39,381 nucleotides of DNA, taken from the sequence record ON528719; one strand, 5' to 3'. The DNA is from Shigella phage ESh6. The notes below the pieces were generated by a model. The model did no database searches, was not told the DNA's origin, and saw only the letters and a list, made by a program, of their open reading frames with translations. This document shows, piece after piece, positions 2,665 to 24,224 of this stretch; positions within the stretch are counted from its first letter, which is position 1; each line of letters opens with the position of its first letter. The translations under genes and the position numbers were made by a program.

Positions 2665-4425
2665 GTGTCTACTCAATCCAATCGTAATGCGCTCGTTGTG
2701 GCGCAACTGAAAGGTGACTTCGTGGCGTTCCTGTTCGTCTTATGGAAGGCGTTAAACCTTCCTGTACCTACTAAGTGCCAGATAGATATGGCTAAGGTAC
2801 TGGCGAACGGGGACAACAAGAAGTTCATCCTACAGGCTTTCCGTGGTATCGGTAAGTCGTTCATCACTTGTGCGTTCGTTGTGTGGTCCTTATGGCGGGA
2901 CCCTCAGTTGAAGATACTTATCGTATCAGCTTCTAAAGAACGTGCAGACGCTAACTCCATATTCATCAAGAACATCATTGACCTGCTACCGTTTCTCAGT
3001 GAGTTGAAGCCGAGACCCGGACAGCGTGACTCTGTGATTAGCTTTGATGTTGGTCCTGCTAGTCCTGACCACTCTCCTAGTGTGAAATCAGTAGGTATCA
3101 CTGGTCAGTTAACTGGTAGTCGTGCTGATATTATCATCGCGGATGACGTTGAGATTCCGTCTAACAGTGCGACTATGGGTGCCCGTGAGAAACTATGGAC
3201 TCTAGTTCAGGAGTTCGCTGCGCTTCTTAAACCTCTGCCTACATCTCGTGTTATCTACCTTGGTACTCCTCAGACTGAGATGACTCTGTATAAGGAGCTT
3301 GAGGATAACCGTGGGTATACGACTATTATCTGGCCTGCTCTGTACCCAAGGACTCGTGAGGAGAACCTCTACTACTCTCAACGTCTGGCACCAATGCTCC
3401 GTGCGGAGTACGAGGAGAATCCTGAGGCACTGGCTGGGACTCCTACAGACCCTGTTCGATTCGACCGAGACGACCTACGTGAGCGTGAGTTGGAATACGG
3501 TAAGGCTGGCTTTACGTTACAGTTCATGCTTAACCCGAACCTGAGTGATGCCGAGAAGTACCCTCTGAGGCTCCGTGACGCTATCATAGCGGCCTTAGAC
3601 TTAGAGAAGGCACCAATGCATTACCAATGGCTTCCGAACCGTCAGAACATCATTGAGGACCTTCCTAACGTTGGCCTTAAGGGTGATGACCTGTATACAT
3701 ACCACGACTGCTCCAACAACTCTGGTCAGTACCAACAGAAGATTCTGGTCATTGACCCTAGTGGTCGCGGTAAGGATGAAACAGGTTACGCTGTACTGTA
3801 CACCCTCAACGGTTACATCTACCTAATGGAAGCTGGAGGTTTCCGTGATGGTTACTCCGATAAGACCCTTGAGCTACTCGCTAAGAAGGCCAAGCAATGG
3901 GGAGTCCAGACGGTTGTCTACGAGAGTAACTTCGGTGACGGTATGTTTGGTAAGGTGTTCAGTCCTATCCTTCTTAAACACCACAACTGCGCTATGGAAG
4001 AGATTCGTGCTCGTGGTATGAAGGAGATGCGTATTTGTGATACCCTTGAGCCAGTCATGCAGACTCACCGCCTTGTCATTCGAGATGAGGTCATTCGGGC
4101 AGACTACCAGTCCGCTCGTGACGTAGACGGTAAGCATGACGTTAAGTACTCACTGTTCTACCAGATGACCCGTATCACCCGTGAGAAAGGTGCTCTGGCT
4201 CATGATGACCGATTGGATGCTCTTGCGCTAGGCGTTGAGTATCTCCGTGAGTCCATGAAATTGGATTCCGTTAAGGTAGAGGGTGAGGTACTTTCAGACT
4301 TCCTTGAGGAACACATGATGCGACCTACAGTGTCTGCTGCCCACATCATTGAGATGTCTGTAGGAGGAGTTGATGTGTACTCTGAGGACGATGAGGGATA
4401 CGGTACGTCTTTCATTGAGTGGTGA
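2665..4425 (+). CDS. 19: Terminase large subunit / DNA maturation protein B (gp19)
   Basis: 586-aa ORF, same length as T7 gp19 and near-identical from memory; GTG start at 2665 after 'aaggagg'; Walker A-like GIGKS. Confidence 0.95.
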
Positions 4426-4462
4426 TTTATGAGGCCAAGGAAGGCCACTTTAAGGAGGTAAT

Positions 4463-4906
4463 ATGATAAACAAGAAGAAGTATGTTGTTGATAAGGAGAC
4501 TGGTTGCTGGAACTTTAAGGGATGCAAGACGAAGACTGGCTATGGTCGCATTCGTGTAAATGGAGTCCATTGGATGGCCCACAGGTATTCCCTGAGTTGT
4601 CATCTAGGCAGACCGATAGCTGACGGAATGGTTGTGATGCACCTGTGTGATAACCCTTCATGTGTTAACCCTGAGCACCTTAAGGAAGGGACTCAGAAGG
4701 AAAACATAGAGGACTGCATCTCAAAAGGTCGCGCAACTAAGGCCACAGGTAAACGTGATGCGTCTAAGAGAGACCCTAGCGAGGAACGTAAGGCTATAGT
4801 GATTCGTAGATACCATAAAGGCTGGACCGCAACGTCCATAGCGAGATACCATAAGCTCTCTGTGGCTTGGGTCAAGAGGACCATTGAGGAGTACCTAAGT
4901 GATTGA
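4463..4906 (+). CDS. HNH homing endonuclease (free-standing), inserted relative to T7
   Basis: 147-aa ORF with 'aaggagg' RBS. Cys/His-rich N-terminus and HNH core MHLCDNPSCVNPEHL; paralogous to the gene 7.7 ORF at 23823..24224. Confidence 0.8.
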   Translation: MINKKKYVVDKETGCWNFKGCKTKTGYGRIRVNGVHWMAHRYSLSCHLGRPIADGMVVMHLCDNPSCVNPEHLKEGTQKENIEDCISKGRATKATGKRDASKRDPSEERKAIVIRRYHKGWTATSIARYHKLSVAWVKRTIEEYLSD

Positions 4907-4957
4907 TATTTGAAATTAGTGATACAGGTCTAAGTATATGATTACAGACCATTATTC

Positions 4958-4980
4958 TAATTCGACTCACTATAGGGAGA
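4958..4980 (+). promoter_or_regulatory. T7 RNAP promoter phiOR (right-origin promoter)
   Basis: 'taattcgactcactatagggaga' matches the 23-bp T7 consensus except T at -13; lies between gene 19 and 19.5. Confidence 0.8.
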
Positions 4981-5066
4981 AGCCTACCTAAAGATTACTA
5001 TAAGACTTAAAGTGGCTATAAGGTAGGTTGTTATTATTAATACAACCAACATAAAGGAGGAGACTC

Positions 5067-5216
5067 ATGTTCCGCTTATTGTTGAACCTACTGCGGCATA
5101 GAGTCACCTATCGCTTTCTTGTGGTACTTTGTGCTGCCCTTGGGTACGCATCGCTTAGTGGAGACCTCGGTTCACTGGAGTCTACCGTTTGCTCTTTACT
5201 CACTTGTAGTGATTAA
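5067..5216 (+). CDS. 19.5: gp19.5 homolog (small hydrophobic protein)
   Basis: 49-codon ORF (below the ORF-track cutoff) after 'aaggagg'; MFRLLLNLLRHRVTYRFLVVLCAALGYASLSGDLGSLESTVCSLLTCSD matches T7 gp19.5 from memory. Confidence 0.7.
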   Translation: MFRLLLNLLRHRVTYRFLVVLCAALGYASLSGDLGSLESTVCSLLTCSD

Positions 5217-5289
5217 GGTCTTCCTGACCGACTGACGGCTCACCGAGGGATTCAGCGGTATGATTGCATCACACCACTTCATCCCTATA

Positions 5290-5790
5290 GAGTCAAGTCC
5301 TAAGGTATACCCATAAAGAGCCTCTAATGGTCTATCCTAAGGTCTATACCTAAAGATAGGCCATCCCATCGGTGATGCCTAAAGAGTTGCTTAGAGAGGG
5401 CCTAAGGAGTCCCTAGAGGGTCCTTTAAAATATACCATAAAAATCTGAGTGACTATCTCACAGTGTAAGCGCCCAAAGTTCCCCCCATAGGGGTCCCTAA
5501 AGTCACTCCTTTGGAGTGCCGGACCTTGAGGTGGCCTTGAGGTGGGGCCTGAGGTGGACCGAAGAGGGTCCTAATGTTACCGTTGGGAGTGTCTCCTTGT
5601 CCCTATCTGTTCAACCTCCTAAAGTCACCTCCTAAAGTTCACCATCAAGACAACACCAAAAGAATAACCTTAAAGACTCACCAAGTCAATCCCTATCTTA
5701 AAGTTTTCCCAAAGACCAGACCCAAAGACCAGACCCAAAGCTGCCCCGTTGTTACCTATAAAGAGATGACCAATAATCATTGTCTTTAAT
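5290..5790 (+). repeat. Short dispersed 'cctaaag / ccaaagaccaga' repeats typical of T7-type genome-end regions
   Basis: Multiple copies of ccTAAAG-like heptamers (e.g. 'cctcctaaagtcacctcctaaagttcacc') and tandem 'cccaaagaccagacccaaagaccagacccaaag'. Confidence 0.6.
5456..5615 (+). repeat. Direct terminal repeat, single collapsed copy; predicted physical genome left end at ~5456
   Basis: 'tctcacagtgta...gttccccccatagggg' matches the first bases of the T7 left end (recalled); the 240 bp between 19.5 and this point equals T7 spacing. Right boundary approximate. Confidence 0.5.
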
Positions 5791-5809
5791 TCGACTCACT
5801 ATAGAGAGA
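5787..5809 (+). promoter_or_regulatory. T7 RNAP promoter phiOL-like (left origin)
   Basis: 'taattcgactcactatagagaga': consensus -17 to +1 except T at -13, A at +2; located upstream of the host promoters as in T7. Confidence 0.7.
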
Positions 5810-15012: not shown

Positions 15013-15467
15013 TGGCTCGTGTACAGTTTAAACAACGTGAATCTACTGACGCAATCTTTGTTCACTGCTCGGCTACCAAGCCAAGTCAGAATGTGGGTGT
15101 CCGTGAGATTCGCCAGTGGCATAAAGAGCAAGGTTGGCTTGATGTGGGGTATCACTTTATCATCAAGCGTGATGGTACTGTAGAGGAAGGCCGAGATGAG
15201 ATGGCTGTAGGTTCTCACGCTAAGGGCCACAACCACAACTCTATTGGTGTCTGCCTTGTTGGTGGAATTGACGATAAAGGTAAGTTCGACGCTAACTTTA
15301 CGCCAGCCCAAATGCAATCCCTTCGCTCACTGCTTGTCACACTGCTGGCTAAGTATGAAGGCGCTGTACTTCGCGCGCATCATGAGGTCGCGCCGAAGGC
15401 ATGTCCTAGTTTCAACCTGAAACGCTGGTGGGAGGAGAATGAACTGGTTACGTCTGACCATGAGTAA
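15012..15467 (+). CDS. 3.5: Lysozyme, N-acetylmuramoyl-L-alanine amidase; also RNAP inhibitor (gp3.5)
   Basis: 151-aa ORF near-identical to T7 lysozyme (MARVQFKQRESTDAIFVHCSATKPSQNVGVREIRQWH...). Confidence 0.95.
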   Translation: MARVQFKQRESTDAIFVHCSATKPSQNVGVREIRQWHKEQGWLDVGYHFIIKRDGTVEEGRDEMAVGSHAKGHNHNSIGVCLVGGIDDKGKFDANFTPAQMQSLRSLLVTLLAKYEGAVLRAHHEVAPKACPSFNLKRWWEENELVTSDHE

Positions 15468-15873
15468 TTTACGCATAGACCCGTCAAGTCCTTCCGGTAT
15501 CTCCAAAGGTGATAAACCTATTGGGTGGATTCACAAAGGAAGATATTGGAGGATGCGGATAAACGGTAAAGCAGTGATGTGCCATGTGGTGATAATGGAA
15601 CTAAAAACAGGAGAACCGATTCCAGAAGGACTGGAAGTTGACCACATAAACAGGAACGGGTTGGACAATTCAATTGGGAACCTTCGCCTAGTTGACCGCC
15701 AAACCAATGTCTGTAATACCGGATGTCGTAAGGACTCAAAGACAGGGGTTAAGGGTGTTAGCTATCGAGAAGGTAGACTCAAGCCTTATTCCGCACACAA
15801 ACAGCGTAATGGTATTCGAAAGTGTAAATCTTTCGAGACTATTGAGGAAGCTGTAAAGTGGCTCGATAATTAA
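15460..15873 (+). CDS. 3.8: HNH endonuclease with AP2-like DNA-binding domain, at the gene 3.8 position
   Basis: ORF track 15439..15873; likely start ATG 15460. HNH motif EVDHINRNGLDNSIGNLRLVDRQTN and AP2-like GVKGVSYREGRLKPYSAHKQRNG. Not orthologous to recalled T7 gp3.8. Confidence 0.72.
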   Translation: MSNLRIDPSSPSGISKGDKPIGWIHKGRYWRMRINGKAVMCHVVIMELKTGEPIPEGLEVDHINRNGLDNSIGNLRLVDRQTNVCNTGCRKDSKTGVKGVSYREGRLKPYSAHKQRNGIRKCKSFETIEEAVKWLDN

Positions 15874-18687: not shown

Positions 18688-20802
18688 ATGATCGTTTCTG
18701 ACATCGAAGCTAACGCCCTCTTAGAGAGCGTCACTAAGTTCCACTGCGGGGTTATCTACGACTACTCCACCGCTGAGTACGTAAGCTACCGTCCGAGTGA
18801 CTTCGGTGCGTATCTGGATGCGCTGGAAGCCGAGGTTGCACGAGGCGGTCTTATTGTGTTCCACAACGGTCACAAGTATGACGTTCCCGCATTGACCAAA
18901 CTGGCAAAGCTACAATTGAACCGAGAGTTCCACCTTCCCCGTGAGAACTGTATCGACACCCTTGTGCTGTCACGCTTGATTCACTCTAACCTAAAGGACA
19001 CCGATATGGGTCTTCTGCGTTCCGGTAAACTGCCGGGGAAACGCTTTGGGTCTCACGCTTTGGAGGCGTGGGGTTATCGCTTAGGCGAGATGAAGGGTGA
19101 ATACAAGGATGACTTTAAGCATATGCTTGAAGAGCAAGGTGAAGAATACGTTGACGGAATGGAGTGGTGGAACTTCAACGAAGAGATGATGGCCTATAAC
19201 GTTCAGGACGTTGTGGTCACTAAGGCTCTCCTTGAGAAGCTACTCTCTGACAAACATTACTTCCCTCCTGAGATTGACTTTACGGACGTAGGCTACACTA
19301 CGTTCTGGTCAGAATCCCTTGAGGCCGTTGATGTTGAACATCGCGCTGCATGGCTACTCGCTAAGCAGGAACGAAATGGGTTCCCATTTGACACCAAGGC
19401 AATCGAAGAGTTGTACGTAGAGTTAGCTGCTCGTCGCTCAGAGTTGCTGCGTAAGCTGACCGAAACGTTCGGCTCGTGGTATCAGCCTAAAGGTGGAACA
19501 GAAATGTTCTGCCATCCACGAACAGGTAAGCCGCTGCCTAAATACCCTCGCATTAAGATACCTAAAGTTGGTGGCATCTTTAAGAAGCCTAAGAACAAGG
19601 CACAGCGAGAAGGTCGTGAGCCTTGCGAACTGGATACCCGCGAGTACGTTGCTGGCGCTCCTTACACCCCAGTTGAGCACGTAGTGTTTAACCCATCGTC
19701 TCGTGACCACATCCAGAAGAAACTCCAAGAGGCTGGATGGGTCCCAACCAAGTACACCGATAAGGGTGCTCCTGTGGTGGACGATGAGGTACTCGAAGGA
19801 GTACGCGTAGATGACCCTGAGAAGCAAGCTGCAATCGACCTCATTAAAGAGTACCTGATGATTCAGAAGAGAATCGGACAGTCTGCTGAGGGAGACAAGG
19901 CATGGCTCCGATACGTGGCTGAGGATGGTAAGATTCACGGTTCTGTAAACCCTAACGGGGCAGTTACTGGTCGCGCCACTCACGCTTTCCCTAACCTCGC
20001 ACAGATACCAGGTGTCCGTTCTCCTTATGGTGATAAGTGCCGCGCTGCTTTTGGCGCTGAACATCACCTAGATGGTGTTACTGGTAAGCCTTGGGTTCAG
20101 GCAGGTATCGACGCATCCGGCCTTGAGTTGCGCTGTTTGGCCCACTTCATGGCTCGCTTTGACAACGGTGAGTATGCTCACGAGATTCTCAATGGCGACA
20201 TCCACACTAAGAACCAGATTGCTGCTGAGTTGCCTACCCGTGATAACGCTAAGACGTTTATCTATGGGTTCCTCTACGGTGCTGGTGATGAGAAGATTGG
20301 ACAGATTGTTGGTGCTGGTAAAGAGCGCGGCAAGGAACTCAAGAAGAAATTCCTTGAGAACACCCCAGCGATTGCAGCACTCCGTGAGTCTATCCAACAG
20401 ACACTTGTTGAGTCCTCGCAGTGGGTAGCTGGCGAACAGCGAGTCAAGTGGAAACGCCGCTGGATTAAAGGTCTGGATGGTCGTAAGGTACACGTTCGTA
20501 GTCCTCACGCTGCATTGAATACCCTTCTGCAATCTGCTGGTGCTCTCATCTGCAAACTGTGGATTATCAAGACAGAAGAGATGCTAGTAGAGAAAGGCTT
20601 GAAGCATGGCTGGGATGGAGACTTTGCGTACATGGCGTGGGTACATGATGAAATCCAAGTAGGTTGCCGTACCGAAGAGATTGCTCAGGTGGTCATTGAG
20701 ACCGCACAAGAAGCAATGCGCTGGGTTGGAGACCACTGGAACTTCCGGTGTCTTCTGGATACCGAAGGTAAGATGGGTCCTAACTGGGCCGTATGTCACT
20801 GA
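18688..20802 (+). CDS. 5: DNA polymerase (family A) with 3'-5' exonuclease (gp5)
   Basis: 704-aa ORF, same length as T7 gp5; exo motif [11 protein letters not shown] and polymerase motifs present. Confidence 0.97.
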
Positions 20803-23505: not shown

Positions 23506-23826
23506 ATGGGTAAGAAAGTCAAGAAGGTAGTTAAGAAAGTCACTAAGCCCGTTGAGAAAGCCGTAAAGAAAGTTACCAAGGAAGTGGCTCGTCCTATTAA
23601 ACAGGTTGCTGGTGCGTTGGCAGGTGGCGCTGGTGAAACACAGGTAGTTGAAGTTCCACAACCAACAGCCGCTGCAACTCCTGCTGCACAGATTGTTGAC
23701 GTACCTGAGAAAGAGGTTTCCACTGAGGACGAAGCACAGACCGAAAGCGGACGCAAGAAAGCTCGTTCTGGTGGTAAGAAGTCCTTGAGTGTAGCCCGTA
23801 GCTCCGGTGGGGGTATAAATATATGA
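23506..23826 (+). CDS. 7.3: gp7.3 homolog (tail/adsorption protein)
   Basis: 106-aa Lys/Ala-rich ORF with RBS 'aaggagg'; position matches T7 gp7.3. Confidence 0.8.
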   Translation: MGKKVKKVVKKVTKPVEKAVKKVTKEVARPIKQVAGALAGGAGETQVVEVPQPTAAATPAAQIVDVPEKEVSTEDEAQTESGRKKARSGGKKSLSVARSSGGGINI

Positions 23827-24224
23827 CAGATTGTATCCTTCATACTGGTTGCACGACTAAAGGAGGGTACGGTCTCGTTGGTTATAAAGGTAAGACACAG
23901 CTGGCTCACAGGGTATCATACATCAAATCAAAGGGTGAGATACCGACTGGTATGGTTATAATGCATACCTGTGACAACCCTCTATGCATCAACCCTGAAC
24001 ATCTTGTAGCTGGTACTCAGCGTGATAACCGTATGGACTGTGTAACTAAAGGTAGAGATAACGCATCCAGAGGTGAAGAGCATTACGGTGCCAAGCTCAC
24101 TGAGGCCATTGTACGTGAGATTCGTGCATCAAATTTAACAAACACTGAGTTGTCAGAAATGTATGGCATCCATAGGAGAACCATTAGTGACGCTCGATGT
24201 GGTAAGACATGGAGGCATATTTAA
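23823..24224 (+). CDS. 7.7: HNH homing endonuclease (gp7.7 homolog)
   Basis: 133-aa ORF; HNH core MHTCDNPLCINPEHL and MTDCILHTGCTTKGGYG N-terminus; resembles T7 gp7.7 from memory. Confidence 0.82.
   Translation: MTDCILHTGCTTKGGYGLVGYKGKTQLAHRVSYIKSKGEIPTGMVIMHTCDNPLCINPEHLVAGTQRDNRMDCVTKGRDNASRGEEHYGAKLTEAIVREIRASNLTNTELSEMYGIHRRTISDARCGKTWRHI

Follow-up and report, generated by a model that had tools for sequence, protein, structure and literature searches.

The open reading frame (ORF) at positions 4463–4906 of the genome of Shigella phage ESh6 is, as judged from homology and position, an orthologue of gene 19.4, an already annotated family (PHROG 6254). It probably represents an old, maintained, free-standing HNH endonuclease of the homing type, with homing itself inferred. 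The unit that varies between ESh6 and its relatives is the whole intergenic segment between genes 19 and 19.5, including the phiOR-type promoter and its leader, and not the ORF alone. The window is the whole stretch of DNA that was analysed, 39,381 bp in length, and it is a circularly permuted T7-like phage genome (Teseptimavirus). Coordinates are positions in this window, and the features described lie on the + strand unless stated otherwise. A 24-kb ESh6 query showed 91–94% identity to many deposited phages, the closest being ESh2, Bas103, and Bas104 (approximately 93%).

The intergenic region between genes 19 and 19.5

The gene order around the ORF is gene 17 (3′ part), 17.5, 18, 18.5, 19, the ORF, a phiOR-type promoter, gene 19.5, the terminal-repeat region, and the early genes. 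Gene 19 (2665–4425) encodes the large terminase subunit, in which we identified the T7 terminase RNaseH-like domain (PF22530, E=5.6e-40) and Terminase_6N. The ORF starts with an ATG after a gap of 37 nt and codes for 147 residues followed by a stop codon. The initial annotation had described an extra HNH gene with its own ribosome-binding site between gene 19 and phiOR. This gene is real and well beyond chance, and the T7 annotation has no gene at that place. The ribosome-binding site, TAAGGAGGT, occupies 4451–4459 and ends 3 nt before the ATG. The motif GGAGGTA[AG]TATG is conserved in all ten carrier alleles examined.

Just past the gene 19 stop codon, the sequence can form a hairpin, GGCC-AAGGAA-GGCC (GGCCAAGGAAGGCC; 4433–4446). 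Downstream of the ORF lies the phiOR-type T7 RNA polymerase promoter (TAATTCGACTCACTATAGGGAGA; 4958–4980), which is consensus-like except for an A to T change at −13 and has a predicted transcription start at 4975. The identical −13 variant is present in all ESh6-type carriers. The leader from phiOR to gene 19.5 (4981–5066) contains the motif CCTACCTAAAG and an AT-rich hairpin, and the downstream neighbour, gene 19.5 (5067–5216), encodes a DUF5465 protein. The promoter at the phiOL position (5787–5809) carries the same A to T variant at −13 (TAATTCGACTCACTATAG...), and the class III promoters of ESh6 have the consensus TAATACGACTC. We also noted two perfect short tandem duplications, ACCTCCTAAAGT (12 nt) and CCCAAAGACCAGA (13 nt), at 5614–5638 and 5708–5733, both with a 13-nt period. 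Both lie downstream of gene 19.5 and ahead of the early genes, where the terminal repeat and the concatemer junction are expected.

Within 4200–5400, predicted sigma-70 promoters did not exceed background counts, and a search for intrinsic terminators found none. An Rfam search of 4000–5800 returned nothing relevant, and no intron was seen around the HNH ORF. The predicted folding of the RNA in the 5′ region of the ORF was not significantly more stable than that of shuffled sequence (z=−0.67), and the same was true of the phiOR leader (z=−1.10). Thus, there is no sign that the ribosome-binding site of the HNH gene is sequestered. Since neither a terminator nor a promoter of its own was found between gene 19 and the ORF, the HNH mRNA is likely made late in infection by read-through from gene 19, with translation from its own ribosome-binding site. 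Inside the ORF, the − strand carries a 13-mer resembling a T7 promoter (CGAATCACTATAG; 4794–4806) that matches the promoter core at 12 of 13 positions. It is probably a chance match, because three of eight carriers (L007, L013, and L016) vary in it at synonymous sites.

We aligned the locus of ESh6 with those of 13a, T7, 64795_ec1, and Bas102, and extracted the intergenic regions from 19 genomes. The distance from gene 19 to gene 19.5 is 641 bp in ESh6 and 258 bp in T7. Across the 19 genomes, these lengths fall into two discrete forms, 641–674 bp in carriers of the HNH gene and 255–260 bp in non-carriers; one of the comparisons gave 641–649 bp for carriers. At the left end, both forms have the gene 19 stop codon followed by TTTATG; at the right end, both have ACCAACATAAAGGAGGAGACTCATG, which holds the ribosome-binding site and start of gene 19.5. 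Between these boundaries, at approximately 4432–5044, the carrier and non-carrier forms are unalignable by BLAST. In addition to the HNH gene, the variable segment defined by alignment against the T7-type allele contains the hairpin upstream of it and, downstream, a phiOR of its own and a short leader. Consistent with this, the 163 bp that follow the ORF (phiOR and leader) were found at full length only in HNH-bearing records (n=31). The ORF does not fill a gap that is otherwise T7-like, since the intergenic region as a whole is a different allele. Given that the two alleles differ throughout the region, this cannot count as a clean insertion, and the comparison yields neither an exact empty site nor a candidate target. 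The flanks are well preserved: in the flank alignment, the last 65 nt or so of gene 19 and the first 45 nt or so of gene 19.5 are near-invariant among relatives.

Global alignment of both intergenic alleles with cheap gaps gave unreliable paths, and homology within the hairpin and the leader was read by eye. On such a reading, the hairpin at 4433–4446 may be homologous to T7 GACCACGGATGGTC and to GGCCACGGAAGGCC in L020, a more distant HNH-less relative. The leader at 4981–5066 may likewise be a shortened and diverged relative of the T7-type leader; its motif and AT-rich hairpin are also found in L020. Tentatively, the carrier allele can be viewed as a diverged counterpart of the T7-type region in which the ORF has come to lie between hairpin and phiOR. 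Two other arrangements were seen in related genomes. In Yersinia phage Yep-phi (L034), the 13-nt unit AGTGACTACTCTT is repeated in tandem roughly a dozen times in the leader that runs from phiOR to gene 19.5 (approximately 3600–3745 of that record); the unit occurs once at the corresponding position in L033 and is absent from ESh6. In Salmonella phage Vi06 (L019; IMG/VR 651703085), gene 19 is split between ADIIIADD and VEIPSNS by approximately 830 bp (1618–2448 of that record). The interruption holds an ORF of 200 residues (1820–2422) and resembles an intron or another intervening element. Gene 19 of ESh6, unlike that of Vi06, is uninterrupted.

Distribution and age of the HNH segment

The ESh6 protein matches phrog_6254, labelled ‘HNH endonuclease’, over residues 3–146 of 147 (E=3.8e-60). 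Phage 13a (NC_011045) has its ORF at this locus under the name gene 19.4, with the product ‘HNH endonuclease’; phiOR and gene 19.5 come next. The ESh6 and 13a (YP_002003987.1) proteins are 69.9% identical over 99% of their length. The same-locus protein of Yersinia phage vB_Yep_9 is 99.3% identical to that of ESh6, and identities of 93–99% were found to same-locus genes in approximately 17 other phages. RefSeq entries for HZ2R8, CICC 80001, IME390, N30, and 3A_8767 annotate the same-locus gene as ‘HNH endonuclease’. The copy in JeanTinguely (BASEL Bas64) is annotated as ‘putative homing endonuclease’, and in Yanou, too, the same-locus gene has an annotation of this kind. Clusters of near-identical proteins contain 71–72 member sequences from metagenome-derived assemblies. 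In Berlinvirus-type Yersinia phages, in which gp19 is only about 80% identical to that of ESh6, HNH proteins with 52–74% identity are encoded at the same locus in the order gene 19, HNH, phiOR, gene 19.5. The presence of such homologues at the gene 19/19.5 locus of another genus shows a long association of this lineage with the locus.

The gene is nevertheless confined to a minority of T7-like genomes. Positions 3900–5300 of ESh6 were searched against 50,697 phage records, of which 285 matched. Of these, 29 match at least 80% of the query in one place and so include the ORF. The ESh6-type gene is present at a nucleotide identity of at least 90% in 23 records, and our overall estimate is about 25–30 carriers in 285. 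Comparison of this junction across T7-like genomes thus shows that the gene is not conserved in most relatives. Among the matches listed, those that lack the ORF cover only the stretches from genes 19 and 19.5, with 56% coverage in two pieces. The closest whole-genome relatives, ESh2, Bas103, and Bas104 (approximately 93% identity), are missing from the 60 records listed, which cover all matches to the gene at 90% or more.

The variants in 13a and Vi06 are only 66–70% identical in protein sequence to that of ESh6, because their C-terminal halves have strongly diverged and their nuclease halves are conserved. Against both of these phages, dN is 0.65–0.68 in the C-terminal half and 0.05–0.07 in the N-terminal half. 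Domain-level mosaicism of this kind is described for phage homing endonuclease genes (PMC10448857).

We compared eight ESh6-type carriers (including ESh6) with eight close non-carriers from IMG/VR. Fst is approximately 0 in both flanks (gene 19 on one side, gene 19.5 and downstream sequence on the other) right up to the junctions. In these 8 versus 8 genomes, the flanks contain no SNP that is diagnostic of HNH presence. No co-conversion gradient was detected in 2.4 kb upstream or 0.7 kb downstream in the same genomes, which have high background recombination; recent homing events have thus left no visible trace in this sample. A query-anchored scan of the whole genome, covering 9,709 polymorphic sites, gave zero fixed differences between carriers and non-carriers. 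Twenty sites showed a frequency difference of at least 0.7, where label permutation predicted 21.8. With no linked sites in the flanks or elsewhere in the genome, the segment itself is all that tracks the ORF. Separately, gene 5 (DNA polymerase) contains ten SNPs within approximately 80 bp (19998–20079) at which the frequencies in carriers and non-carriers differ by 0.7 or more. A cluster of such size arose in 6% of label permutations; the signal is marginal and may represent one shared haplotype block.

Carriers do not form a clade, and presence or absence of the gene does not follow phylogeny. In a neighbour-joining tree of gene 19 from all 19 genomes, carriers are interspersed with non-carriers, requiring 5 parsimony steps compared with 6.6 for permuted labels (p=0.17). 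The HNH ORF has a dN/dS of 0.10 (28 pairs) with dS of up to 0.5, and all copies examined are intact. Mean divergence among carriers is 5.5% for the segment and 6.4% for gene 19, and the two sets of distances correlate (r=0.6). The segment is therefore about as diverged as its neighbour, and the proposal that the gene was newly acquired does not stand. The pattern is that of an old polymorphism under purifying selection, recombined onto many backgrounds, rather than that of a recent invasion. The similar divergence and the correlation agree with long residence and ordinary recombination just as well as with active homing.

The HNH protein and its relation to gene 7.7

The HNH core of the 147-residue protein is MHLCDNPSCVNPEHL. 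Pfam HNH_3 (PF13392) matches residues 39–81 with E=9.3e-9 and 35.2 bits, above the curated cut-off of 24.8. The zf-His_Me_endon profile gives E=1.3e-5 and 25.9 bits, slightly under its cut-off of 27, and HTH_23 matches residues 104–145 (E=2.1e-6). PADLOC labels the protein ‘HEase’. Together with the PHROG assignment and a profile match to I-PpoI, the HNH_3 result supports the placement in a homing-endonuclease-type HNH family that the initial annotation had made from the sequence. The protein can be divided into an N-terminal β-rich region with the His-Me (HNH) nuclease domain, encoded by 4463–4753 and supported by HNH_3, the AlphaFold2 model, and the I-PpoI alignment, and a C-terminal three-helix HTH domain, encoded by 4772–4897, that is presumed to bind DNA (helices 105–118, 123–130, and 134–146). 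This modular build of nuclease plus HTH, as predicted, is typical of phage HNH homing endonucleases.

Fifteen residues are invariant in 36 homologues that are 35–95% identical to the ESh6 protein: C15, G26, Y27, A39, H40, R41, H60, C62, N64, C67, N69, P70, H72, L73, and N81. A PDB search with the single sequence gave zero matches, and I-PpoI and I-HmuI were reached by profile search only, with marginal E-values of 0.01–0.04. In the homologue profile, H60, C62, C67, H72, and N81 stand opposite H98, C100, C105, H110, and N119 of I-PpoI (stretch MHLCDNPSCVNPEHLKEGTQKEN). In I-PpoI, His98 is the general base, Asn119 is a metal ligand, and the first zinc site includes Cys100, Cys105, and His110. 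From these known roles and the alignment, we infer that H60 (encoded at 4640–4642) would act as the general base and N81 as a metal ligand. C62, C67, and H72 would form a structural zinc site, probably with C15 as the fourth ligand. The active site is apparently intact, and the protein is predicted to be catalytically competent.

AlphaFold2 gave a confident two-domain model (mean pLDDT 89.9), with a β-rich N-terminal part that includes a ββα finger and three C-terminal helices. The linker at approximately residues 91–110 was modelled with lower confidence (mean pLDDT of 64 and 78 for its two ten-residue blocks). The top PDB match in Foldseek was I-HmuI (1u3e), with a probability of 1.00 but an E-value of 3.8e-3 and a TM-score of 0.43 over 92 aligned columns; I-PpoI was next. 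TM-scores to I-HmuI and I-PpoI are modest, between 0.28 and 0.43.

ESh6 carries three HNH_3 genes: the gene 3.8-like gene, gene 7.7, and gene 19.4. The first (15439–15873; 144 residues), flanked by gene 3.5 (lysozyme) and gene 4 (primase/helicase), takes the place that gene 3.8 has in T7, and its product is only a marginal match to gp19.4. Gene 7.7 (23823–24224; HNH_3, PHROG 59) had been called a paralogue of the ORF, and its duplication or homing within the genome had been suggested as the origin of gene 19.4. Kinship holds at the level of the family. Both are HNH_3 genes in one genome, and gp19.4 and gp7.7 are identical at 41 of 85 positions (48%, E=2e-25), which speaks for such an event. 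The match is restricted to the N-terminal nuclease half. At the DNA level, similarity is confined to a 57-nt stretch around the catalytic motif, where identity is 74%. The C-terminal domains are unrelated, HTH_23 in gp19.4 and weak Xre-type HTH matches in gp7.7, and the best PHROGs differ (6254 and 59). Same-locus orthologues that are 93–99% identical occur in the 17 or so phages mentioned above, and the 52–74% homologues sit at this locus in another genus; all of these are closer to gp19.4 than gp7.7 is. The short DNA similarity and the closer same-locus homologues elsewhere in practice refute a recent copy of gene 7.7, and we consider recent duplication or homing of gene 7.7 into a new locus inside the ESh6 genome extremely improbable.

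Explanations for gene 19.4 and comparison with known systems

The patchy and phylogeny-independent presence of the gene (29/285 records; tree p=0.17; flank Fst near 0) is the distribution expected of a homing gene. Homing endonuclease genes often adjoin terminase and other essential genes (PMC10448857). If gene 19.4 is indeed of this type, as we think probable, then in a mixed infection gp19.4 would nick or cut the HNH-less gene 19–19.5 intergenic allele of a related phage. Repair by recombination with the HNH-bearing genome would then copy in the whole segment (approximately 4432–5044), including phiOR and the leader. Homology arms could be provided by the near-invariant sequences where gene 19 ends and gene 19.5 begins. 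The carrier's own allele would be immune, as it would lack the uninterrupted target. The element would thus persist as an old presence/absence polymorphism in a recombining T7-like gene pool, with the function of the protein kept by selection. Cleavage, target, and gene conversion are the parts of this scheme that we propose rather than observe.

A dN/dS of 0.1 would be equally expected for a domesticated protein of benefit to the phage. Such an accessory protein might blunt a break-sensing host defence or harm competing phages, and its patchiness would then come from recombination and loss. The strong purifying selection, the old age of the segment, and the flanks without a co-conversion signal agree with such a role. 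A 2025 preprint also reports that T7 gp3.8, even when catalytically dead, attenuates GAPS4 defence, and that in the presence of GAPS4 a T7 without three homing endonucleases loses in competition (bioRxiv 10.1101/2025.09.07.674715). However, most close relatives do without the gene, and a protein that only bound DNA would not need the strict conservation seen in the catalytic and zinc residues. We regard domestication as the less probable origin of the pattern, at perhaps one chance in a few, but as a serious rival that is compatible with homing. Helping the adjacent terminase to cut concatemers, as HK97 gp74 does, is a very unlikely function for the protein. The gene does directly follow that for the large terminase and is close to the genome end, and examples of HNH proteins associated with terminases have been described (Kala et al. 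2014, cited in both PMC8861465 and PMC10448857). According to Kala et al. 2014, as quoted in PMC8861465, the HNH-dependent kind of large terminase is that of the Terminase_1 family. In ESh6, gp19 is of the T7 type and not a Terminase_1 protein: it matches Terminase_6N and has an RNaseH-like nuclease domain of its own (PF22530). T7 and most relatives package their DNA without the gene. The Pfam matches of gp19.4 are HNH_3/zf-His_Me_endon and HTH, and PF01844, which we take to be the family of HK97 gp74-type HNH proteins, was not reported down to E=0.1.

A further reading, rather doubtful in our view, gives the whole segment a function. PhiOR is a secondary replication origin, located in a region involved in concatemer processing. 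The HNH segment and the T7-type region might be ancient alternative alleles maintained in the T7-like gene pool, with gp19.4 cutting specifically the T7-type allele at or near phiOR. Besides being a selfish element, the gene would then serve to attack related phages in the same cell, and the private phiOR and leader would travel with it as an immunity determinant.

For annotation, we suggest that the ORF be labelled gene 19.4, HNH endonuclease/putative homing endonuclease, and not as a duplicate of gene 7.7. The intergenic region from gene 19 to gene 19.5, including phiOR, exists in two non-recombining forms and should be treated as a single presence/absence segment in alignments and phylogenies. 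Literature searches found no experimental characterization of gene 19.4-family proteins. Since the family is widespread, well conserved (dN/dS of approximately 0.1), and apparently uncharacterized, it is a reasonable candidate for studying homing and competition in the easily handled T7-like phages. Gene 19.4 is an ordinary accessory gene of the selfish type that had already been annotated, and current understanding is unchallenged by it.

The closest known counterparts are gene 19.4 of 13a and its orthologues in HZ2R8, CICC 80001, IME390, N30, JeanTinguely, Yanou, vB_Yep_9, and Vi06, which share with ESh6 the locus, orientation, ribosome-binding site, nuclease domain, and type of leader; 13a and Vi06 differ in the strongly diverged C-terminal half. 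T7 gp7.7 and gp3.8 belong to the same HNH_3 family and have the same small build of nuclease plus HTH, whereas their types are found at other loci, with other best PHROGs and other C-terminal domains. HK97 gp74-type proteins resemble gp19.4 in being encoded beside the terminase near the genome end. They go with a different terminase family and belong to a different HNH subfamily, whereas gp19.4 has an added HTH and is optional among relatives. I-HmuI (1U3E) and I-PpoI (1A73/1CZ0) share the His-Me finger, and the H-x-C-x4-C-x4-H motif of gp19.4 and the putative metal-binding Asn after it align with I-PpoI. The pairing of an HNH domain with a C-terminal helix-turn-helix is likewise found in I-HmuI. 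Both of these enzymes are encoded inside group I introns, whereas the gene for gp19.4 is free-standing and intergenic. At 147 residues, gp19.4 is smaller than I-PpoI and I-HmuI (162–174 residues), and the second zinc site of I-PpoI has no aligned equivalent in it.
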